A stretch of DNA of 53,998 nucleotides from sequence record NC_079184.1, one strand, 5' to 3'. Both the position numbers and the translations under genes were made by a program. This document shows, piece by piece, positions 13,274 through 43,047 of the stretch. Source of the stretch: Escherichia phage vB_EcoM_DE15. How positions within the stretch are numbered: position 1 is the first letter of the stretch; each line of letters begins with the position of its first letter. The notes below the pieces were generated by a model that worked only from the letters and a program-made list of their open reading frames with translations, was not told the origin of the DNA and ran no database searches.

Positions 13274-13588
13274 ATGATTCGCAAGCATTCTGCTAAAGTT
13301 TTGACGTTAAGAAGGGTAAGGGTCGGTCTTACAGGTAATGAAGAGGAAACAATACACTTCGTCCTGGTTGGAGGTCTTTGGTACTACAATGGTACTAATG
13401 CCTTTTCCGTGAGAATCTCAGAAAAAGATGGGTTCTGGAAGCACACTTTCGAAGAGATACTAGGCACCAGTGCCAAATACACCCTTGCAGAAATTAAGAA
13501 ATATTTCTATATAGGCCCAAACAAGTCCATGCAAATAGCAATCCGCAAATGGACAACAAACCAACCGATTTACGGAGTTCCATTTTGA
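13274..13588 (+). CDS. Hypothetical protein (104 aa)
   Basis: GGAGAG RBS, ATG start. Confidence 0.45.
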   Translation: MIRKHSAKVLTLRRVRVGLTGNEEETIHFVLVGGLWYYNGTNAFSVRISEKDGFWKHTFEEILGTSAKYTLAEIKKYFYIGPNKSMQIAIRKWTTNQPIYGVPF

Positions 13589-19030: not shown

Positions 19031-20794
19031 ATGAACGTCAAGCAATGTGTGGCTAAGATTAAGCACGATGTACCAGACTGTAAATCCACATCTGGCAAGT
19101 CTTTACAGGTTTGGTTGAATGTCGATGAAGCTGGTAATAAGAACTTCTCTGGTTACTGCTTTGCGTGTGGCGTTCTAGTACCAAATCCTTATGGCAATAA
19201 TCCGGAGAACATTCCAGAGATTAAAGTCAAAACTCCAGAAGAAATTCAGGAAGAAGTTGATGAAATCACTGCTTGTCCTCCGTTTGATTTAACCCATCGC
19301 AGCATTGAGCCGGAGTTCTGGAAAGCTGCTGGTGTTCGACTTCTGTATTCAGAGTATGATGGTAAGACTCCAAATGCTCTGGCACATGGCTACACCAAAA
19401 ATGGTAAACTTGTTCGTTGGAAGATTAAACTTCTGAACAAGAAAGTTATGTGGTCCGTTGGCGACACCCAGGGTAACGACCCTTACAACTGGATGGCTGC
19501 AAAAGCAATTGGCGGTAAGACACTGTTCATCACAGAAGGTGAAGAAGACTGTATCGCATTGCGTCAAATCCTCAAAACCATGAACCGTGGTGGTGCATAT
19601 GAAGATTTGGATTTTGCTGTAATTAGTTTGAGTGACGGGAGTGATTCCGTACACAAATGTTTGTCACCAGTTGCAGAAGAAATTAAGCAACGTTGGGAGC
19701 AGGTTGTTATTGTATTTGATGACGATGAACCTGGACGTAAAGCTGCAAAAGAAGCATGCCGATTGTTGCCTGGTGCAATGATTGCAACTCTTCCGGCTAA
19801 CGATGCCAACGATTGTTTGAAGCGTGGCTTGCTCAAAGCTACTCAATCTGCTGTTGTATTCCGTGCTGCTCGTCCTCTACCTACAGCACTTGTCAATAAA
19901 GAACTTCTTATGGAAGAACTTGATGATGAGGTTGAACAAGGTGTGGACTATCCTTGGCCCAAGTTAACCGACTTAATGTTTGGTCAACGTCGAGCCGAAG
20001 TTATTACAATCGGTGGTGCAGAAGGTGGTGGTAAAACTACGCTGTCCCGTCAGATTGTGCATCACAACATTACCAAGCATGATTGGGGAGTGTTTACTGC
20101 ATACATGGAGGAAACTCCTACAGAAACATTGCGCCGAATGGCTGGCCTCAATGACAACTTGCCATATTGGGAGCCTGCGTTTACTCGTGAAGACCCTCGA
20201 TATGATGAAGCTAAGTTCCGTCAAACTGCTGCGAAGATGCTTCGTAACATGGAGATTTGGGACCGCAAGCAAGCTGGAGAAGACCCTTATGAAACCTGGG
20301 ATGGGTTAAAGACGATTCTTCGTCAGATTGGACCAGACATTGATATGTTTGTCCTTGATAACTTAACCTACTTATCGGAAGGGATTTCTGCCTCAGAGAA
20401 GAACGACTTCTTAGGTAAGCTGTATGCAGATATTACTAAGCTGGCAGACCAATATCAGTTCCATGTAAATATTCTGTCGCACCTTAACCCTGTGGCAAAA
20501 GGTCAACGACCTCATGAGGATGGTGGACGTATTAAGAAGTCAGACTTTACTGGCTCCCGTGCTGCTGCTAAGTATTCTCATGGTATGTTCGGCTTTGAGC
20601 GTAATAGCCAGGCAGTTGACCCAAACTGTTCTATCATTCGTTCTATTAAGGCTCGTAAGAGTGGTAAAACAGAAGGCTTCAAAACGTACTACGACACCGA
20701 ATCTGGTCGAATCATTCAACGTTCTTGGGATGACTCGCTGTTCGAAACTAAAGAGATTGTTCAACTTACCAAGAAGAACGGTCCTCATCAATAA
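19031..20794 (+). CDS. DNA primase/helicase (T7 gp4-like)
   Basis: N-terminal Cys zinc finger, TOPRIM FITEGEEDCIAL, Walker A GGAEGGGKTT. Confidence 0.85.
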   Translation: MNVKQCVAKIKHDVPDCKSTSGKSLQVWLNVDEAGNKNFSGYCFACGVLVPNPYGNNPENIPEIKVKTPEEIQEEVDEITACPPFDLTHRSIEPEFWKAAGVRLLYSEYDGKTPNALAHGYTKNGKLVRWKIKLLNKKVMWSVGDTQGNDPYNWMAAKAIGGKTLFITEGEEDCIALRQILKTMNRGGAYEDLDFAVISLSDGSDSVHKCLSPVAEEIKQRWEQVVIVFDDDEPGRKAAKEACRLLPGAMIATLPANDANDCLKRGLLKATQSAVVFRAARPLPTALVNKELLMEELDDEVEQGVDYPWPKLTDLMFGQRRAEVITIGGAEGGGKTTLSRQIVHHNITKHDWGVFTAYMEETPTETLRRMAGLNDNLPYWEPAFTREDPRYDEAKFRQTAAKMLRNMEIWDRKQAGEDPYETWDGLKTILRQIGPDIDMFVLDNLTYLSEGISASEKNDFLGKLYADITKLADQYQFHVNILSHLNPVAKGQRPHEDGGRIKKSDFTGSRAAAKYSHGMFGFERNSQAVDPNCSIIRSIKARKSGKTEGFKTYYDTESGRIIQRSWDDSLFETKEIVQLTKKNGPHQ

Positions 20795-20859
20795 CAGAGC
20801 TGCTACGCTGCATGGTTCGCCCACCAGCGTAGCCCTCACCAATCCATTGGAGCCATACT

Positions 20860-22794
20860 GTGTTGTATCCTTGGGAAAACATGTACGCCAGTGACATTGA
20901 AACAACTGGCCTGTTGGAGCAAATGCGTAAGCAAGCTGCACCACGTCTTCACAACATTGGATATATTGATGTTCTGACTCGTGAAGAAACTGTAATAGAG
21001 TGGACCGACAGAAAATCTATCCAAGCATTTCTGGATACAGGCCCAACATTAATCATGCACAACGGCGCAACCTTTGACTTTGAAGCACTGAGGTTCCTAG
21101 GCTACGACGTTTCAAAATGTACACTAATTGATACTTTGTTTATCAGTTGGTATCTGCAACCTCGTCGTGTTAAGCACGGCTTAGAAGGTTACGGCGAAGA
21201 GTTTGGTGTGCCAAAACCAGTCATTGAAGATTGGGAAAATCAAACTCAAGAAGAGTACAACCATCGTGTGATGGAAGACTGCAAGATTCAGTTGAAGCTG
21301 TGGGAACAGCAATACATTCAACTCTTGAAGATTTATAAATCTCCTAGCGAAGTTAAGCGCTTCGTTGAATATCTGATGACAAAAGCTCGTCAACAAGTTA
21401 TTCAACAACGTACTCGCTGGAAGCTGAACATTGAGAAGGCATTGGCGTTTAAGGCCAAGCTGGAGCCAATGATTAAAGAGAAGACGGACGCATTGGAAGC
21501 ATCAATGCCGCGTGTTCCGGAATACGTTATCAAAACCCGTCCAGCTAAATGCCACAAGATGAACGGGCAACTGTCTGCCACTGGAATTAAGTGGAAGGCC
21601 ATTTGTGATGCAAACGGTTTGGACTGGAAAGACCCAGACTTAGCTATCAAGGTTCTTAAAGGCTATAAGAAGCCTAATGCTGGTTCACATGTTCAAATTA
21701 AAGATTGGTTGTTCAGCTTAGGCTGGGAACCAGAAACCTTTAAGTTTGACCGTAATAAGGAAACAGGTGAAACTCGCCAGATTCCACAAATCACTGTGAA
21801 GGATGAGGATGGCAATCCTGAAATATGTCCGAGCTTGCATAAGCTGGCGGAAAGAAACCCCGACTCTGGTATTCAACATCTTATTGGGATGGGCGTGTAT
21901 AAACACCGTCTGTCTGTTGTTAATGGCTTCCTTCGCGACGTCGATGAAGATGGGTTCCTTACTGCACGATGCGGTGGCCTTACCAATACTTTACGCCTTA
22001 AACATCGCGAACTTGTTAACCTCCCTTCTATTCGTGTATTTGGCGGTGAAGAACTGCGTTCAATGTTGGAAGCGTGGCGCGAAGACTACGAACAGTTAGG
22101 CTCTGACTTGTGTTCTCTGGAAGACCGCTGTAAGCACCACTTCCAGTGGATGTATGACCCTGAATACGTTAAGAAGCAGTTGGCACCAGACTATGATGCT
22201 CACCTTGCAATTGGCGTGATTGGTGGATTCATTACTGAACAAGAATCCCAGGACCACAAGGACGGAATTAAGAAGTGTAAACAACGTCCAATGTTTAAGA
22301 CCACAAACTATGCTTGTCAGTATGGTGCTGGTGTACCAACTGTAGCTCGTTCTGCTGGCTGTGACCAGACTACTGCTGCACGACTGCATAAAGCATATTG
22401 GGACTTGAACTGGTCTATTAAAGAGATTGCTGCAAACACTAAAGTGGTAACAATTGATGGTCAGATGTGGCAACAGAATCCAGTAAACAAATTCTGGTAT
22501 TCACTGCGTACAGAGAAAGACCGCTTCTCCACATTGTGTCAGGGTACTGGTGCATATGTGTTTGATGTTTGGTGCAACAACATCATTGCAATTTGTAATG
22601 AACGTTGGGGCTGTGACCCACTTCTGTCCGGACAATTCCACGACGAATTGATTCTCCAAGTTAAGAAAGGTTTCCGTGATTTGTGGACGGACTTGCTTAA
22701 TGAGGCAATGGACCGAACCAACAAAGAACTTAAACTTAACCGTGATTGTGCATGTGATGTGCAGTTCGGTGATAACTACGCGGAGATTCACTGA
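20860..22794 (+). CDS. Family A DNA polymerase with 3'-5' exonuclease domain (644 aa)
   Basis: Exo I DIETTGL; motif B KQRPMFKTTNYACQYGAG; motif C QFHDELIL. Confidence 0.8.
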   Translation: MLYPWENMYASDIETTGLLEQMRKQAAPRLHNIGYIDVLTREETVIEWTDRKSIQAFLDTGPTLIMHNGATFDFEALRFLGYDVSKCTLIDTLFISWYLQPRRVKHGLEGYGEEFGVPKPVIEDWENQTQEEYNHRVMEDCKIQLKLWEQQYIQLLKIYKSPSEVKRFVEYLMTKARQQVIQQRTRWKLNIEKALAFKAKLEPMIKEKTDALEASMPRVPEYVIKTRPAKCHKMNGQLSATGIKWKAICDANGLDWKDPDLAIKVLKGYKKPNAGSHVQIKDWLFSLGWEPETFKFDRNKETGETRQIPQITVKDEDGNPEICPSLHKLAERNPDSGIQHLIGMGVYKHRLSVVNGFLRDVDEDGFLTARCGGLTNTLRLKHRELVNLPSIRVFGGEELRSMLEAWREDYEQLGSDLCSLEDRCKHHFQWMYDPEYVKKQLAPDYDAHLAIGVIGGFITEQESQDHKDGIKKCKQRPMFKTTNYACQYGAGVPTVARSAGCDQTTAARLHKAYWDLNWSIKEIAANTKVVTIDGQMWQQNPVNKFWYSLRTEKDRFSTLCQGTGAYVFDVWCNNIIAICNERWGCDPLLSGQFHDELILQVKKGFRDLWTDLLNEAMDRTNKELKLNRDCACDVQFGDNYAEIH

Positions 22795-32920: not shown

Positions 32921-33394
32921 ATGCCAAAGCAAGATTGGTCTATTAATACTGGTGAAGCATATGCAGGTGAACAATATGGCCTGGCTACCACCAACTCCCA
33001 GCGCCTGACCTACGTTGCCGAAGAAGAAATGGCAAACTTTGGTCTGGCTGTTGTTCAGGGCACGGCCTCTAATCAGGTTAAACCTGGTATTGAAGCAGAC
33101 GGCACTGTTCTGGGCATTACCATGCGCCAGATTAACATCGAATCAGCCACTCGTCCTGGTGACGGTACTGTTGCTATTAAAGTTGGCTGGCCTCTGGGCG
33201 TTATGCTGTCTGGCCCAATCATGGTCAAACTGAAAACCGCAATCACCGATAAAGACATTGGCGTATCTGACACTGGTCAATTTGGTGGCGTTGGTGCTGG
33301 CTATACTAAAGCAACCAACCTGACTGCACTTCGTTATCCGGCTGCTGCTGGTGATGTTGTTCCGGTAATGATTAACGTAGTCCCAAAGCCGTAA
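32921..33394 (+). CDS. Head structural / decoration-like protein (157 aa), highly expressed
   Basis: Host-like codon usage; slippery CCCAAAG 6 codons before stop. Confidence 0.5.
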   Translation: MPKQDWSINTGEAYAGEQYGLATTNSQRLTYVAEEEMANFGLAVVQGTASNQVKPGIEADGTVLGITMRQINIESATRPGDGTVAIKVGWPLGVMLSGPIMVKLKTAITDKDIGVSDTGQFGGVGAGYTKATNLTALRYPAAAGDVVPVMINVVPKP

Positions 33395-36777: not shown

Positions 36778-38226
36778 ATGGCAATTCCAATTTCCGACAT
36801 CATCCAGGTCAACATTGCGGTAAGTCCTAACGCTGTTGCCGTGGAAGGTTTTGGTCCTCTTCTGTTTCTGAGCAAGGAGTTTACTCCAGCCCCAGGCGAA
36901 GCTGTTCCTGTTCGTCAGTATACCAGCATGGCTGCTGTATCTGCTGATTTCCCATCTGGTGAAATTTATCAAGCTGCTCTGGCATGGTATTCTCAGAAAC
37001 CAACTCCAAAGTATTTCCTCGTAGGTGCTATCACCCATGAAGATGTTACTCTGGCAACTCCTGGTACTGTAACCGCATCTTCTGCTGCGACTCTGGAAAC
37101 CATTACTGCGTTAACTAATGGTGTTCTGTCCATTAATATTAACGGCGTTGATAAGTCTACTGCACCAATCAATTTCTCGTCCGCAGACGATTTTGCTGCT
37201 GCTGCATCAATGCTTAATGCTGCATTTGTTGCTGCCGATATTCCTGCAACTGTTACGCAGACCACAGGCACTTTCAAAATCACTACCAACGAAACTGGCG
37301 TAAATTCCATCATTGGTAACGTGTACGGTTCTGCTGCTGCGGCATTTAAACTTGATTCTGCTTCAAGCCCTGTGCATGTTCAAGGTACTGATGAAGTATC
37401 TATCGGCACCGACTTGAATGCAATCTTGAACTCTACGTTCGACTTCTTCTTTGTTGCTATTGACCGCAAATATCGTGGCAGTGCTGATGGTAATAACCAG
37501 ATGACTGTTGCCAAATGGGCAGAAGCAAACGGCAAAGTATTTGGTTGGGCTGATAGCGACCCGCAGATTCTGGTTCCTGGTGCTGAGTCTAGCTTTAAGC
37601 GTGCCAAAGAGCAGAACCTCCAACGCACTCTGTTGGTGTATGATGCGTCTGATAATGGCGACGAGTATCCAGAAGTTTCTATCCTGGGCCGTGCATCGAC
37701 TGTTAACTTCAACGTTGCAAACTCTTCGCTCGTTCTGGCATTTAAACAAGGTCCAGCTATCAAGACTGCTGACTTGTCCCCGAACCAGCTTGCTGCACTT
37801 GAGCGTGTGAATGGTAACGCATTCATCAACGTCGGCGGGAACACTATGTTCTACAACGGCAAGATGGCTGACGGTACTTGGTTCGATACCGTGCAGGGTG
37901 TTTCTTGGTTAACCTCCAAGATTCGTGCTAACGTGTTCAACCTGTTCTACACCTCCACTACCAAGATTCCTTGGACGGACACTGGTGTTGCTCTGGTGAA
38001 CCAGCAAGTAACCCTGGCTCTGGAACTGGCAGTGACCAATGGTCTGATTGCTCCAGGTTACGACAATGAAGGCAACTTCTATCCAGATGGCTACAAAGTC
38101 TTGGCTACCGACTTGGCTCTGATGCAATCTCAGAAAGGTGCTCGTATCTGGGAAGGCACTTCCTTCATTGCAATTGGCTCTGGCGCATTGCAGGGTGCAG
38201 TTATCTCTGGCAACTTCGTTCAGTAA
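36778..38226 (+). CDS. Tail sheath protein (putative)
   Basis: 482 aa followed by ~150-aa tube-like gene, chaperone and tape measure. Confidence 0.5.
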   Translation: MAIPISDIIQVNIAVSPNAVAVEGFGPLLFLSKEFTPAPGEAVPVRQYTSMAAVSADFPSGEIYQAALAWYSQKPTPKYFLVGAITHEDVTLATPGTVTASSAATLETITALTNGVLSININGVDKSTAPINFSSADDFAAAASMLNAAFVAADIPATVTQTTGTFKITTNETGVNSIIGNVYGSAAAAFKLDSASSPVHVQGTDEVSIGTDLNAILNSTFDFFFVAIDRKYRGSADGNNQMTVAKWAEANGKVFGWADSDPQILVPGAESSFKRAKEQNLQRTLLVYDASDNGDEYPEVSILGRASTVNFNVANSSLVLAFKQGPAIKTADLSPNQLAALERVNGNAFINVGGNTMFYNGKMADGTWFDTVQGVSWLTSKIRANVFNLFYTSTTKIPWTDTGVALVNQQVTLALELAVTNGLIAPGYDNEGNFYPDGYKVLATDLALMQSQKGARIWEGTSFIAIGSGALQGAVISGNFVQ

Positions 38227-38236
38227 GGTGCGATAA

Positions 38237-38692
38237 GTGAAACAATATTCTTTCTATAATACCGACCTCATTATCGACGGTGCTCGTGTAGATGGTTTTA
38301 CCTCTGGTAATTCCATCATCACTGCTCGTCGTAACGCACCTCAACACCTGCCTGTTATTGACGCGTATGGTAAGTTGGCTGTAGCTACTACGGCTGACTT
38401 ATCTGGTACTATTACTTTCCCGCTTCTGCAAACCGCAGACTGGAACGAAATCTTGTACAGCCGTGCTCAGTTAACTCAGGCAACTGGTCTGTCTGGCAAC
38501 AAATCTCTGTGGCAACCGCTCCAGATTCAGATTGTTGACAAGATGGGTGATGTGCTGGTCAATGGTGTAAACGGCGCTATCTTGCAGCAACCTGCAATTC
38601 AGCGTGGTGTGTCCTTCACGTCTAACGTGTGGTCTATCTTTGTAGAGCGCCTCCAGATTAAGACTGGTTCTTATCCGGAAATTGGCGTTTAA
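38237..38692 (+). CDS. Tail tube protein (putative)
   Basis: 151 aa, position. Confidence 0.45.
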   Translation: MKQYSFYNTDLIIDGARVDGFTSGNSIITARRNAPQHLPVIDAYGKLAVATTADLSGTITFPLLQTADWNEILYSRAQLTQATGLSGNKSLWQPLQIQIVDKMGDVLVNGVNGAILQQPAIQRGVSFTSNVWSIFVERLQIKTGSYPEIGV

Positions 38693-38703: not shown

Positions 38704-39162
38704 ATGGCTTGTGAATTGCTTCAACGTGAATTCACAAACTCCAAAGGCGAAACAGTGTTAGTCGTTGTTCGACAATTGTCGGCTTCGGCTGCACTGTCTC
38801 TTCACGCGGAGTTGGTAAGCAAGTTAGGCTCACGAGTATTCCCATTCATCGAAGGTAAATATAACTTCGCTGATATTATATACTTGATGCAGCAAGTAGA
38901 GCATACCGTATTCACAGAATTGTTTAAGCGTGTTATCAGCATGCACTCGTCCATAGATGGACAAGAAATCAAACCTGCATTATATGATATGCAGTTCAAT
39001 GGCGAATTGATGTTGTCTTGCCATGTCTTTGCTTTCGTGCTCGAAGCAAACTTCCTTGATTTTTTCAAGCAAGGGCTCGAAATCAACGAACAGAGACGAT
39101 TGGAGGCGGAGGAAGCATCCAAGCTGGCAGAGCAGAAGAATTCGAGTCCGGAGACAGTTTAG
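38704..39162 (+). CDS. Tail assembly chaperone (G-like)
   Basis: Acidic C-terminus; TTTTTTC slippery site at 39060; position before tape measure. Confidence 0.55.
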   Translation: MACELLQREFTNSKGETVLVVVRQLSASAALSLHAELVSKLGSRVFPFIEGKYNFADIIYLMQQVEHTVFTELFKRVISMHSSIDGQEIKPALYDMQFNGELMLSCHVFAFVLEANFLDFFKQGLEINEQRRLEAEEASKLAEQKNSSPETV

Positions 39163-39338
39163 TATCCCTGTTCCCCGACATAAAATATTTTCTGCATCGT
39201 CCTATAATCGAAGATAGTTCTCTCTGCAAGTTACGTGAATTGCAAGATGGAACCTATTCGATTATGGACTTATTGCTATTCCACGACATTCTCGATTTGC
39301 GTAAGAAACTCGAACCAGTAGATGAAGACAATGGCTAA
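39060..39338 (+). CDS. -1 frameshift extension of tail assembly chaperone (GT-like product)
   Basis: -1 frame opens exactly at the slippery heptamer (stop TGA 39057-39059) and runs 92 codons to 39338. Confidence 0.5.
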   Translation, partial: FFQARARNQRTETIGGGGSIQAGRAEEFESGDSLVSLFPDIKYFLHRPIIEDSSLCKLRELQDGTYSIMDLLLFHDILDLRKKLEPVDEDNG

Positions 39339-42300
39339 TCAAAAAGATTTAATGAAGTTGAGCGTTAATGAGTTAATTGCATTAGGCTCTCAAAGCGGTC
39401 TGACTTTCCATGCTGGTATGAAGAAGTCGCACATGGTTCAACAACTTAGTGCGAGCGCTGCTTCGGGATGGCTGGATACAAATGCAGAATTAATGGGTGG
39501 GTCGTTCGAAGATGACAGTTTGATTACTGAATCTTTGGGTGACTCTTCCATGATTTCAGACGCTGCCCACATTGCACAAGTGCTTTCAAGTGCTGGCTAC
39601 ACAGAAGCATTTCATGCAGCAATGAATGGCCCATCACACCATGTAGAAGCTGTTCACGCATACATGGAAAGGCTTGGCGTTAGCACAGATGATGTGTGGA
39701 TGCACATGCCAAAGCCAAATCCGAACCTACCGCAAGGTAGCTTCAACATGCTTAATGCCTATATGCGAGATACTTTGCAAGGGCATCAAGATATTATGCC
39801 GGAAATCCCAGGCCATTATGCTGGGGATATTATGGCTGAATACTCCACCAACCGTGGAAACATTGCTGACTCCTACAACTACATGGCCCACATGTATGTT
39901 GACCGTGAGCAATATAGCAATCATGAACAATACGCAAGAGACATTAGTCGAGTTGCCAAACGTCTGGAACGAGAGTTACCCTCAGCCTTTAAGGAAGTTG
40001 GGTATACATCCGCATCTAATGTAGGAAATAAATCGGCCCCACATATTTCTTACATGGATGCACTCCCTCAGATTGGTTCTCCTTCGATTGTTTCTGGCAT
40101 TGCACATCCTCGTGCACCTCTTAACGCATCTGGACTTCCTCTTGGTTCTTATGGTTCTGGCATAAATCCAGAATACTCCCTCACTGCCTCGCTAACTGGT
40201 GGCACTGGTTGGAGTGAACCAAGCAAGGCTTTATATTCCTCTATTAGCGAAGCTGTTAAATCTGCTGCCAAAGTTTATTCTGGTTCCAAAGGGATGATGA
40301 ATACTCGTCACGAAGTATCTGACCGTGACATGATTATGGACAGTGCAACTCGCTACACAGATTTGGAAGAAGCCAGAAGCGGATACGAAAACCTTCGTTC
40401 TGAACTTGCAGATGAACCAGCTTATTCTGCATCAAGTGTTCGAGCTATTCTCGAAAACACTTACGATAGAATGGATGCCGAACCTGTTCGCATTCCAAAG
40501 ATGAAGGGAGCTTCACAGCGAGTCGATAAAGATTCACTGTCAACATCTACAGATTTTACAGCACAACTTGGAGAGGCCACCAATTGGAACTCTGCAAGAA
40601 TGCGTCGTGAGGAACTTGCGATTGCAAATATGGATAGTGCTGGATTCCGTGATGTATCAGACTATGGTACAGGACGTTCCGAGTCCCCCGTCCGATTCCA
40701 TGACTTAGAACAGGGCAGCCAAGAGTGGCTGGACTTCCGTAAAAATTATGACATAACTGGCTCAACTGTTGGAACTTTCTTAGGAAACAACCCATACACC
40801 CGACCTTGGGCTGGTATGATTGATAAGATTGGCTTATCTCGTAGTAAAGAGCACAGCGATTTCACCAAAAAGATGTTCGCTGATGGTCACAGGACGGAAG
40901 AAGAAGCACGCGCTCGTGTTGGTAAGGAATTTGGATTCGATATCAAACAAATTGGCGCTATAACAAATGACAACTATCCCGCCTTCATGTATTCTCCTGA
41001 TGGTCTTATTGGGGATGATGCCATTTGGGAGCACAAGAATCCGCAAAGGGCTGGTAAGTTTGCTGACCTTCTTAAAGGCGACCATCCAGACTACATGGAC
41101 CAAATTCAATTTGGTATGCACGTTTCTGGCCGTTCTCGTGCTTTGTTCTCACAAACCATCAACGACGAAACACGTTCGCAGTGGATTGAGAAGGACGAAG
41201 GATGGTACGAAAGAAACCGAAATCGCCTTGATTCTGTGCTTGGCCGTCTTGATGCTGGGCGAGAGTTTGTTAGAAACAATGCTGGATTAGAACGAGAAGA
41301 GCTGATTGCTGGTGCAAGAAGTGCAATGACTGGTGATGGAATCTGGAAAGATATTCGTCAAAGGTCTACTCGTGGCTATTCTGCTGCTGCTGGTACTCCA
41401 GAAGACCCGTTTATTGGTTCACGTTCTTCGTACAATCCAGAAGCATCCTACTCTGACTACAAGCCAAACTTTGTAATGCACGAGCAAAACTTTCCGGCAA
41501 CTACTGGAAATGGTGACACCGGAAATGACTCGATGGCATTGTCTGTTAAGAAAGGTATTCTTGCTGCTCAGGAAGAAAACAGGCAGAAAGGTATTGGTGC
41601 AGATGCAGACTTTGATGGCAAAGCCGATTCAATGGGCTGGAACCGTGAAAGATTTGATGCTGCCAATGGCGGTGGATATTCTGGCGGTGGTGGTGGTCGT
41701 GGCGGCAACTTCACAAGTGGTGGCAACTACTATGATGACTACGGTCGCATGGGTGGTTCGTTAGCTGCTGGCATTGCTGGTGGCAGTATTGGTTCAGCAA
41801 CCAACGGAGTTATGCAAGCATTGATGGCAACTCCTGCTGGACGTATGGCTGCTGTAGGCATTGGTGCTATTCAGATTGGCAATGAAGCTGCTGAATACAT
41901 GAATGACTTTATCGGCAACTCGCTTGATGCTGGTGTGATAAATCCTAATGAATATTCTTCCATGTCGCAAGGCTTGGAGATGTTAGGACTCAACTCACAA
42001 CAAGCGGCACGTCTGAATCAAACCACACATAGTGCCTATAACACCATGCTTAACGGCGACCCCAGCGCCGCTGTGAACATCGTTCGCGGCAGTAGGGGAT
42101 TGCTCACCATAGGTGATATTCGTGCGACAGGCGGCGACCCTGTGGCCCTGGCTCGCATCATGCAGGAAAGGGGCAAGGAGCGTGGCTGGAGTCAGGCCCG
42201 TATCGCAGGTGCTGCCGAAATGGCTGGCCTACAGGGTATGGCGCGAGCATACGACCGCACGGAATACAGCCATGAGCAAGCTGGCTCGGTGGTAGAAGCG

Positions 42301-43047
42301 GGTAGAAACTCCGACTTTGCCGAAGGTATGGCCCAATCGGAAATGTTGCAGGGAAGCCGCGCACGGATGCTGCCGAGCTACAACGTGCCACAAAGTGTCC
42401 TATCTAATGGCGCTTCTGTATTTGAGGCTGGCAGTGATGCACTTGACAGTGTACGCACTGGATTCAACAGGACACGAGAGTTTGCTGGAAGTGTTTACGA
42501 CTTTATTGCTCAGGAAGAATCTGGCGGTCGTGAATACAACAAAGATGGTTCTCGTGTAACAAGTCCAACTGGCGCTCGTGGGATAATGCAGATTCTCCCT
42601 TCGACTGCCCGTGACCCAGGATTTGGAATCAGGCCGTCTGATGGAACTCCAGAAGATGATGCACGAGTTGGTCGTGAATACTATGACGCAATGTACAAGC
42701 GTTATGGCGACCACGAGAAAGCAATGGCTGCTTACACCGATGGTCCTGGCACTGTTGACAAAGCTGTTGATAAGAATGGGTTGGATTGGCTTACTGCTGT
42801 TCCTGCACAGGCACAGAATCGCGTCAAAGCATTCCGTGAATGGTCCAAGTCTTCTCAATCTTTGGAAGAAGGTGCTACAGGGTTTACTCGTAATGGAATG
42901 TCATACGGTCAAACCCAAACTGTTGTTAATGTTAAGATTGATGCTAAGGTCAACAACCAGACTGCTTCTGCTACAGTTGCAATTCCTGGTGGTCAGACTG
43001 TGACTCAACAAATGAACATGAACAACGGTGCGCAACAAAGACGTTAA
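39322..43047 (+). CDS. Tape measure protein (1241 aa) with internal YqaJ-like PD-(D/E)xK nuclease domain and C-terminal lytic transglycosylase (SLT) domain
   Basis: QGSQEWLDFRKNYDITGSTVGTFLG and YSPDGLIGDDAIWEHKNP (YqaJ-like); EESGGREY...GARGIMQILPSTA (SLT); Gly-rich hydrophobic stretch. Confidence 0.65.
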   Translation: MKTMANQKDLMKLSVNELIALGSQSGLTFHAGMKKSHMVQQLSASAASGWLDTNAELMGGSFEDDSLITESLGDSSMISDAAHIAQVLSSAGYTEAFHAAMNGPSHHVEAVHAYMERLGVSTDDVWMHMPKPNPNLPQGSFNMLNAYMRDTLQGHQDIMPEIPGHYAGDIMAEYSTNRGNIADSYNYMAHMYVDREQYSNHEQYARDISRVAKRLERELPSAFKEVGYTSASNVGNKSAPHISYMDALPQIGSPSIVSGIAHPRAPLNASGLPLGSYGSGINPEYSLTASLTGGTGWSEPSKALYSSISEAVKSAAKVYSGSKGMMNTRHEVSDRDMIMDSATRYTDLEEARSGYENLRSELADEPAYSASSVRAILENTYDRMDAEPVRIPKMKGASQRVDKDSLSTSTDFTAQLGEATNWNSARMRREELAIANMDSAGFRDVSDYGTGRSESPVRFHDLEQGSQEWLDFRKNYDITGSTVGTFLGNNPYTRPWAGMIDKIGLSRSKEHSDFTKKMFADGHRTEEEARARVGKEFGFDIKQIGAITNDNYPAFMYSPDGLIGDDAIWEHKNPQRAGKFADLLKGDHPDYMDQIQFGMHVSGRSRALFSQTINDETRSQWIEKDEGWYERNRNRLDSVLGRLDAGREFVRNNAGLEREELIAGARSAMTGDGIWKDIRQRSTRGYSAAAGTPEDPFIGSRSSYNPEASYSDYKPNFVMHEQNFPATTGNGDTGNDSMALSVKKGILAAQEENRQKGIGADADFDGKADSMGWNRERFDAANGGGYSGGGGGRGGNFTSGGNYYDDYGRMGGSLAAGIAGGSIGSATNGVMQALMATPAGRMAAVGIGAIQIGNEAAEYMNDFIGNSLDAGVINPNEYSSMSQGLEMLGLNSQQAARLNQTTHSAYNTMLNGDPSAAVNIVRGSRGLLTIGDIRATGGDPVALARIMQERGKERGWSQARIAGAAEMAGLQGMARAYDRTEYSHEQAGSVVEAGRNSDFAEGMAQSEMLQGSRARMLPSYNVPQSVLSNGASVFEAGSDALDSVRTGFNRTREFAGSVYDFIAQEESGGREYNKDGSRVTSPTGARGIMQILPSTARDPGFGIRPSDGTPEDDARVGREYYDAMYKRYGDHEKAMAAYTDGPGTVDKAVDKNGLDWLTAVPAQAQNRVKAFREWSKSSQSLEEGATGFTRNGMSYGQTQTVVNVKIDAKVNNQTASATVAIPGGQTVTQQMNMNNGAQQRR

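Follow-up and report, generated by a model that had tools for sequence, protein, structure and literature searches.

A putative programmed -1 frameshift linking a tail assembly chaperone gene to a start-less downstream reading frame in Escherichia phage vB_EcoM_DE15

How could a reading frame that lies between a tail assembly chaperone gene and a tape-measure gene, overlapping both and offering no usable start ahead of its conserved part, be translated? The question is raised by positions 38704-39338 of Escherichia phage vB_EcoM_DE15 (NC_079184.1), analyzed here as a stretch of 53,998 nucleotides (nt), hereafter the window. An initial annotation, made from the letters alone, had proposed that the translation of a 152-amino acid (aa) chaperone shifts into the -1 frame at a TTTTTTC heptamer, in the G/GT-type arrangement conserved for tail assembly chaperones. 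Comparison of this locus with other phages indicated that a canonical G/GT-type programmed -1 frameshift at T_TTT_TTC very probably yields two products, a short protein, G, and a 211-aa fusion, GT, whose downstream part is called T. The proposed arrangement was supported throughout, and every lambda-type feature that can be looked for in sequence was found.

The slippery heptamer T_TTT_TTC was located at 39060-39066 on the + strand and lies in the frame of the chaperone gene, with base 39060 as the third base of a GAT codon and the 0-frame reading GAT TTT TTC (Asp119-Phe120-Phe121) in X_XXY_YYZ phasing. The -1 frame is closed by a TGA at 39057-39059 (+), which abuts the heptamer and sets the 5' limit of the interval in which a shift yields the long product, and from there the frame runs on through 92 codons as far as 39338, with TAA at 39336-39338. 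This open reading frame (ORF) overlaps the start of the tape-measure gene, covering both of its candidate ATGs, at 39322 and 39331. These positions agree with what the initial annotation had given, as does the predicted fusion size of about 211 aa, for which the sequence gives 121 aa of G and 90 aa of the -1 frame. The T segment, the coding sequence after the slip, would run from 39066 to 39338 (+; 90 codons and TAA), and the GT fusion corresponds to 38704-39066 joined to 39066-39338. TTTTTTC occurs a single time over both strands of the window and is the sole in-phase XXXYYYZ motif within the 103-nt G/T overlap, and no shift-prone in-phase Z_ZZN tetramer was found among the 0-frame codons of that overlap. 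The +1 frame was considered as an alternative shift product and rejected, being short and without conservation. Digestion of the fusion with GluC is predicted to release the peptide ANFLDFFQARARNQRTE over the GT junction, and its G counterpart would be ANFLDFFKQGLE.

The stop of the -1 frame abuts the heptamer in the window, GJ1, Mangalitsa, PYps3T, MLP1, PM1, and ZPAH14 and lies 1-5 codons 5' of it in Fifi44, Spp001, pAh6-C, Myduc/PA_03, Faunus, and AhydM-H1. A stop 0-5 codons upstream is thus common among relatives and not universal, and it may trim the products of premature slips.

The 0-frame gene G (38704-39162, +; 152 aa) encodes a tail assembly chaperone (TAC) by Pfam, PHROG, and fold, as had been suggested. 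Its product matched Pfam PF21822 Phage_TAC_15 at 67.1 bits (gathering cut-off 22) over residues 20-126, covering profile positions 5-124 of 127, and phrog_11820 "tail assembly chaperone" at E=2.5e-75; PF21822 was present in 46 of 46 database homologues. G and T were modelled separately. The AlphaFold model of G, built with 27 homologues, had a predicted local distance difference test score (pLDDT) of 85 and a predicted template modelling score of 0.75 and consisted of a beta-hairpin followed by helices, with the shift site inside the last long helix (residues 102-146). A search of a viral structure library with this model returned annotated TACs, including "Pre-tape measure frameshift protein G" of Xylella phage Sano; a sequence search of the PDB gave no match for G.

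We examined the loci of 18 relatives, covering Carltongylesvirus, Sabourvirus, the Yersinia PYps group, Suwonvirus, Loessnervirus, Faunusvirus, Myducvirus, Pahsextavirus, Yushanvirus, Shantouvirus, and a Vibrio phage. The -1 frame was open for 91-115 codons in all 18 and ended at the tape-measure start or a few bases away from it, and an in-phase TTTTTTC stood at the homologous position in 17, spanning both Chaseviridae subfamilies and Shantouvirus and including relatives with proteins down to about 30% identity. The codon preceding TTT TTC varies (GAT Asp, GCT Ala, AGT Ser), with T kept as the third base in every case except Faunus (GAG). Where two phages shared the same residue, they also shared its codon at a rate of 0.41-0.44 within G residues 1-110 and of 0.77 within the 14 codons after the heptamer; at the three heptamer codons themselves, the rate was 1.00 (307/307). 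Both TTT and TTC are used freely for Phe109 and Phe111, and F120 was TTT and F121 was TTC in 16 of 16. These figures indicate that the wobble positions of the heptamer are under synonymous freezing, and it is this comparison with other phages that is decisive for the frameshift. A tblastn search with the conceptual GT fusion returned 107 phage records, in 106 of which the two pieces lay in different frames.

The T segment consists of two parts. In the dual-coding overlap (39066-39158, +), the 0 frame encodes the C-terminal helix tail of G and the -1 frame a Gly-rich, weakly conserved, predicted-disordered linker, QARARNQRTETIGGGGSIQAGRAEEFESGDS; beyond it, an alignment of 16 phages delimited a conserved T domain, LVSLFPDIKYFLHRPIIEDSSLCKLRELQDGTYSIMDLLLFHDILDLRKKL (39159-39311, +), corresponding to Pfam DUF6889. 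The block LFPDIxYFLHRPxIxxxxLC...DGTYSxxDLxxxHxxLDL[RK] holds 13 invariant positions across the 16 phages, whose T regions fall to 29% identity, and the invariant residues include L34, P39, L45, R47, C56, L61, S67, L71, H75, D79, and L84. The -1 translation matched phrog_4364 (function unknown) at E=4.5e-18, and T of the window scored 21.1 bits (E=2.6e-4) against PF21829 DUF6889, under the gathering cut-off of 23.9; 13 of the 16 orthologous T translations matched DUF6889 at E<=0.01 (best E=1.9e-9), and T-type ORFs in the database bear a precomputed PF21829 assignment. The model of T had a pLDDT of 67 overall and about 50 over residues 1-30, with a disordered Gly-rich linker leading into a small helical module. 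Human MDP-1, returned for T by a PDB sequence search, was a marginal and probably spurious match and was gone with the T profile.

The protein-level conservation, together with the DUF6889 and phrog_4364 matches, indicates that the -1 ORF is coding. This bears on one alternative, that the T-run and the open -1 frame arose by coincidence from base composition and that the downstream stretch is a non-coding spacer. Many records annotate nothing over the T region, and a mechanical scan picks up further in-phase heptamers in the window; against this stand the conservation of the -1-frame protein across families with its invariant residues, the Pfam and PHROG matches, the synonymous freezing precisely at the heptamer, and the uniqueness of TTTTTTC in the window, which leave coincidence a negligible chance.

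A coding T segment might also stand alone as a small gene with a start codon of its own and no fusion, as several GenBank records have it: gene callers yield standalone ORFs of 37-73 aa in the T region, and many such short calls are found in the protein database. We inspected the starts available to T. The first start codon in the T frame of the window is a TTG, 32 codons before the stop and without a Shine-Dalgarno (SD) sequence, and relatives are no better placed or are worse off; candidate starts in this frame vary from genome to genome, and only 2 of about 70 have an SD-like motif ahead of them. The first T-frame start of Fifi44, 4HA13, and MLP1 falls 24-32 codons from the stop, downstream of half the conserved block, and an independently started T in these phages could therefore not include the LFPDIxYFLHRP...C block. 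No joined G-T coding sequence was present in any of 20 Chaseviridae GenBank/RefSeq records inspected, and 5 of the 20 had no annotation at all over the T region. The standalone T calls (GJ1 gp61, PM1_050, Myduc_065, pAh6-C gp9, and PYps3T ORF069) start at different, non-homologous positions, with the annotated start of GJ1 gp61 being an ATC codon in the -1 frame. Starts that differ in each record and nearly always lack an SD-like motif, and a -1 frame that is open back to the heptamer in every genome even though that stretch would then be non-coding, make a separate T gene highly improbable. With no usable start codon or SD ahead of the conserved domain, T lacks an independent start, and the data on start codons and conservation leave effectively no room for this alternative or for coincidence.

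The two-frame arrangement extends beyond the family. A tblastn search with a divergent T domain returned 131 phage records, including Rhizobium RHEph04-like phages, Aminobacter Erebus, Psychrobacter pOW20-A, Iodobacter PhiPLPE, and an uncultured myovirus, and, among the matches listed, the majority had nothing annotated under the match. Conservation of the -1-frame protein reaches phages of Aeromonas, Vibrio, Shewanella, Rhizobium, Psychrobacter, and Iodobacter. We inspected 4 distinct metagenomic contigs (5 loci, L019-L023) and 4 non-Chaseviridae phages (RHEph04, ctfzr933, PhiPLPE, and pOW20-A), and the -1 architecture and a slippery motif were present at the homologous position in these metagenomic loci and phages, with T in the -1 frame in all four phages. 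L019 and L023 carry an in-phase TTTTTTC, L021/L022 carry a canonical G_GGT_TTT one codon upstream at the aligned position, and the homologous site reads CCT TTT TTC in RHEph04 and GAT TTT TTT in ctfzr933 and PhiPLPE. These contigs, which belong to four of the short T calls, encode TAC_15 followed by DUF6889 in the -1 frame, and several short T calls still contain the -1-frame translation of the T-run, FF(Q/R), as RFFRAR (P0047, P0051, and P0065) or EFFQR (P0072).

We searched the sequence around the heptamer for elements that could stimulate slipping. No SD-like motif was found in the sequence upstream of the heptamer. Downstream, minimum free energy and centroid folds both contain a 9-base pair (bp) stem that closes a 77-nt multibranch element, with the 5' arm GGGCUCGAA at 39073-39081 (+), 6 nt past the heptamer, and the 3' arm UUCGAGUCC at 39141-39149 (+), just 5' of the G stop at 39160-39162; the 6-nt spacer is the right spacing. 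The 90-nt element 39067-39156 gave z=-2.65 (3 of 200 shuffles as good) and its PM1 equivalent z=-2.11, values that depend on how the segment is cut (z=-1.3 for a wider and z=+0.2 for a shorter one). Folding predicts the stem for the GJ1, Yersinia-phage, and PM1 groups and not for Loessnervirus, Myducvirus, Faunus, or most Nefertitivirinae. In the alignment of relatives, the pair-count signal was modest, with 72.7% of cells paired vs 65.9% in shuffles, for a stem that was derived from the window sequence itself and has dual-coding arms, and 5 of the 9 stem pairs showed changes on both sides, some of them double changes of the GGGG/CCCC type. We regard the 9-bp stem as a clade-specific candidate enhancer of E. 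coli, Yersinia, and Pectobacterium phages, a possible but on balance doubtful element that stands outside the core claim.

Several results weigh against a conserved programmed frameshift at this site. Three of the sites are degenerate: Faunus, 1 of the 18 relatives, and the GC-rich L020 both carry the imperfect heptamer G_TTT_TTC, and pOW20-A, with GGT TTT A, retains just a U_UUU tetramer. An unsplit G-T fusion gene was not found, since a fusion query against 5.8 billion proteins returned only G-only proteins of about 150 aa and a search with the T profile for unsplit fusions gave just short T calls. RNAalifold gave no family-wide consensus pairs, Rfam no match at E<=1, and the stem, lying in dual-coding sequence, showed no covariation within the clade that has it. 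The literature searched contained no protein, reporter, or genetic evidence for this phage or any Chaseviridae member. The behavior of such motifs in E. coli bears on the heptamer and on its degenerate forms. H_HH.U_UU.Y heptamers are among the most efficient -1 motifs in this host (Sharma et al. 2014, PMC4066793), and U_UU.U_UU.C, a member of this class, is under-represented in E. coli genes, gives more than 0.1% frameshift without stimulators, and is used by insertion sequence (IS) elements (PMC4066793). The sites of Faunus, L020, and pOW20-A are plausible because the U_UU.Y tetramer ranked second among tetramers (PMC4066793).

The remaining adverse points would suit slippage of the polymerase, with host or phage RNA polymerase adding one U at the T6 run, and such a +1 U insertion would give exactly the same 211-aa sequence. 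The site is homopolymeric, with T6 here and T7 or T8 in ctfzr933 and PhiPLPE, and the phage encodes a T7-like single-subunit RNA polymerase (652-2592; PF00940, E=1.2e-18), a known hallmark of phiEcoM-GJ1-like phages. Appreciable polymerase slippage usually needs runs of about 8-9 nt or more (reviewed in PMC5009743), and T6 is shorter than the usual runs, the long homopolymer being absent. L021/L022, pOW20-A, Faunus, and L020 have just T4-T5 and yet keep the -1 architecture, and within Chaseviridae neither the C at position 7 nor the codon phase varies, which is what tRNA re-pairing predicts. Slippery motifs have been swapped at a fixed position, and this therefore suggests selection for ribosomal slippage and not for a particular sequence; the alternative motifs of the distant phages favor ribosomal over transcriptional slippage, and we consider the latter quite improbable.

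One longer match to the T profile, P0066 (164 aa), was considered as a G-T fusion and rejected, its N-terminus not being chaperone-like. This metagenomic protein, from a 1559-nt contig, has a DUF6889-like C-terminus, NMFPNIDSFLHRPIISDPPMCTLKELEDGTYS, in frame with an N-terminal region unlike Phage_TAC_15, and it could be another chaperone family sharing the T domain or an artefact of assembly or gene calling.

For the programmed -1 ribosomal frameshift, we propose the following course of events. G would be the abundant short chaperone, and a minority of ribosomes would slip when tRNA-Phe occupies TTT in the P site and TTC in the A site at Phe120-Phe121, the two tRNAs re-pairing in tandem one base back, onto TTT TTT within 39060-39066. 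Reading would then continue in the -1 frame from 39066 to the TAA at 39336-39338. The resulting GT would combine the G core (residues 1-121), the flexible Gly-rich linker, and the small conserved helical DUF6889-type T domain. By analogy with lambda gpG/gpGT, many G and few GT molecules would coat the tape measure through their G part, the T domain would bring in the tail tube protein, tube and sheath would polymerize to the length set by the tape measure, and neither G nor GT would stay in the virion. In the clade of E. coli, Yersinia, and Pectobacterium phages, slipping may be raised by the multibranch RNA element with its 9-bp stem, and the model stands without it. The analysis shows the layout of the sequence, that G is a chaperone, that the -1 ORF is coding and has no start of its own, and that the slip site is deeply conserved; we infer the production of the fusion, the GT:G ratio, the partners of G and T, and the role of the fusion in assembly.

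The surrounding genes are consistent with this course. Megablast searches with the locus and, separately, with the first 25 kb both led to the E. coli myoviruses of the phiEcoM-GJ1 group (Chaseviridae, Cleopatravirinae, Carltongylesvirus), with vB_EcoM_SA91KD at 99.5% identity to the locus, and the 53,998-nt window is a near-complete phiEcoM-GJ1-like myovirus genome. The tail sheath gene (36778-38226, +) was identified by PF11863 (E=4.6e-65) and phrog_205 "tail sheath" (E=4.3e-102). The tail tube gene (38237-38692, +), directly 5' of G, was identified by phrog_280 (E=3.3e-32); its product also gave a sub-threshold match to PF11681 (KPP10_Orf10, also named Phage_Tube_PhiTE), and its counterpart is labelled tail tube in Mangalitsa and PYps phage records. 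The tape-measure gene (39322-43047, +; 1241 aa) matched phrog_19855 over its full length and has SLT and YqaJ domains. The order is thus sheath, tube, G, T to 39338, and tape measure from 39322 or 39331, which is the position of the chaperone pair in the lambda paradigm.

We also noted several features outside the G/T question. The "Staphylococcus phage Pel53" (PP952070.1) has 94.4% identity over the 1.5-kb locus and 96.7% in the GT protein, and its host label (Staphylococcus hyicus) looks doubtful given a Carltongylesvirus-like genome. The tape-measure-like protein contains an internal YqaJ/RecE-type PD-(D/E)XK nuclease domain (PF09588, E=2.3e-13, aa 468-604, about 40723-41133), also matches phrog_434 "RecE-like exonuclease" with a PDG...EHK motif visible in its sequence, and has a C-terminal SLT lytic transglycosylase domain (about 42502-42777). 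The records of some relatives label the whole protein exonuclease or endonuclease. A nuclease domain within a tape measure is unusual, and a literature search found no paper on it. The mechanical scan of the window identified other in-phase XXXYYYZ motifs near ORF ends with a -1 frame running beyond the 0-frame stop, namely, CCCAAAC at 13516 (ORF 13274-13588), CCCAAAG at 33382 (ORF 32921-33394), and GGGAAAA at 20873 (ORF 20514-20894). Most of the other scanned sites are probably cases where the next gene overlaps in the -1 frame, or spurious ORFs.

The end of T bears on how the tape measure itself is translated. In the window, the ATG at 39331 and the TAA at 39336-39338 form ATGGCTAA, and no SD precedes the ATG at 39322 or 39331, the duplex free energies being -1.0 and -1.2 kcal/mol vs -5.9 for G. 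Throughout Cleopatravirinae, the tape-measure ATG is without an SD (-1 to -5 kcal/mol) and either overlaps the T stop or abuts it; in Nefertitivirinae, the 3' end of T contains a strong AAGGAG (-8.5 to -9.1 kcal/mol). Because the Cleopatravirinae start has no SD and overlaps or abuts the T stop, tape-measure translation in this subfamily might be fed mainly by frameshifted ribosomes terminating GT, an idea that we consider unlikely and offer as speculation from the sequence. If it were true, one slip event would dose GT and the tape measure together and fix their stoichiometry.

The main value of these results lies in annotation, with T either missing from the Chaseviridae records inspected or entered there as a very short hypothetical protein whose start is arbitrary. 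DUF6889, for which a literature search found no paper mentioning the domain, gains a likely role as the frameshift-accessed T domain of Phage_TAC_15-type chaperones. A T-rich recoding site is kept at one structural position, in the predicted last helix of G, in Chaseviridae and in several unrelated-looking myovirus genera. Our understanding of tail-chaperone frameshifting itself is unchanged, the site being an unannotated case of a well-known kind of recoding, and a literature search found no prior description of it in Chaseviridae or phiEcoM-GJ1.

The locus can be compared with several known systems. The lambda heptamer is G_GGA_AAG, whereas the heptamer here is T_TTT_TTC and the phage is a contractile-tailed myovirus. 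The shift lies 31 codons before the G stop with an overlap of 103 nt, and no similarity to lambda G or T can be detected in the sequences of the Phage_TAC_15 G and the DUF6889 T. The slippery site of P2 is TTTTTTG. In its FETUD tail operon, P2 makes gpE and gpE+E' by a frameshift, reportedly described by Christie and colleagues in 2002. The locus shares with P2 the contractile tail, the placing of the chaperone pair between the sheath and tube genes and the tape-measure gene, and a -1 shift at a T-rich slippery run, but the protein family is different, and Pfam Phage_E and Phage_P2_GpE gave no match. In the lambda gpG/gpGT paradigm (Levin et al. 1993; Xu et al. 2004; reviewed in PMC5009743), which is established and widely conserved, the tape measure is coated with G and GT, the latter bringing in the tube protein through T, and frameshift efficiency sets the G:GT ratio; the efficiency in P2 is 2- to 3-fold higher (PMC5009743).

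T4-like phages are likewise myoviruses needing a short and a long chaperone form, and they are reported to carry the two as separate genes with no frameshift (Vladimirov, Gautam & Davidson 2022, as summarized in PMC10274946); here, in contrast, a single copy of G is followed by a start-less -1 ORF. In E. coli, the transposases of IS elements rely on frameshifts at an identical heptamer, U_UU.U_UU.C, likewise by tandem tRNA slippage (PMC4066793). Sites of the IS3 type serve a transposase fusion and usually have a strong downstream hairpin or pseudoknot, whereas no conserved stimulator was found at this locus. The closest precedent is the TAC-N/TAC-NC -1 frameshift at an invariant GTTTTT inferred in Vandenendeviridae (Pakpunavirus, KPP10-like) and Andersonviridae (PMC12846349, 2025). 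Those phages are also myoviruses with a KPP10_Orf10-type tube and a DUF3383/E217_gp31-type sheath, their downstream ORF is routinely hypothetical or unannotated, and the inference there was likewise comparative (PMC12846349). They belong to different virus families, and the likeness drawn here to the Chaseviridae G and T is one of arrangement; the G_TTT_TTC of Faunus and L020 shares GTTTTT with them, and the full T_TTT_TTC is the rule in Chaseviridae.

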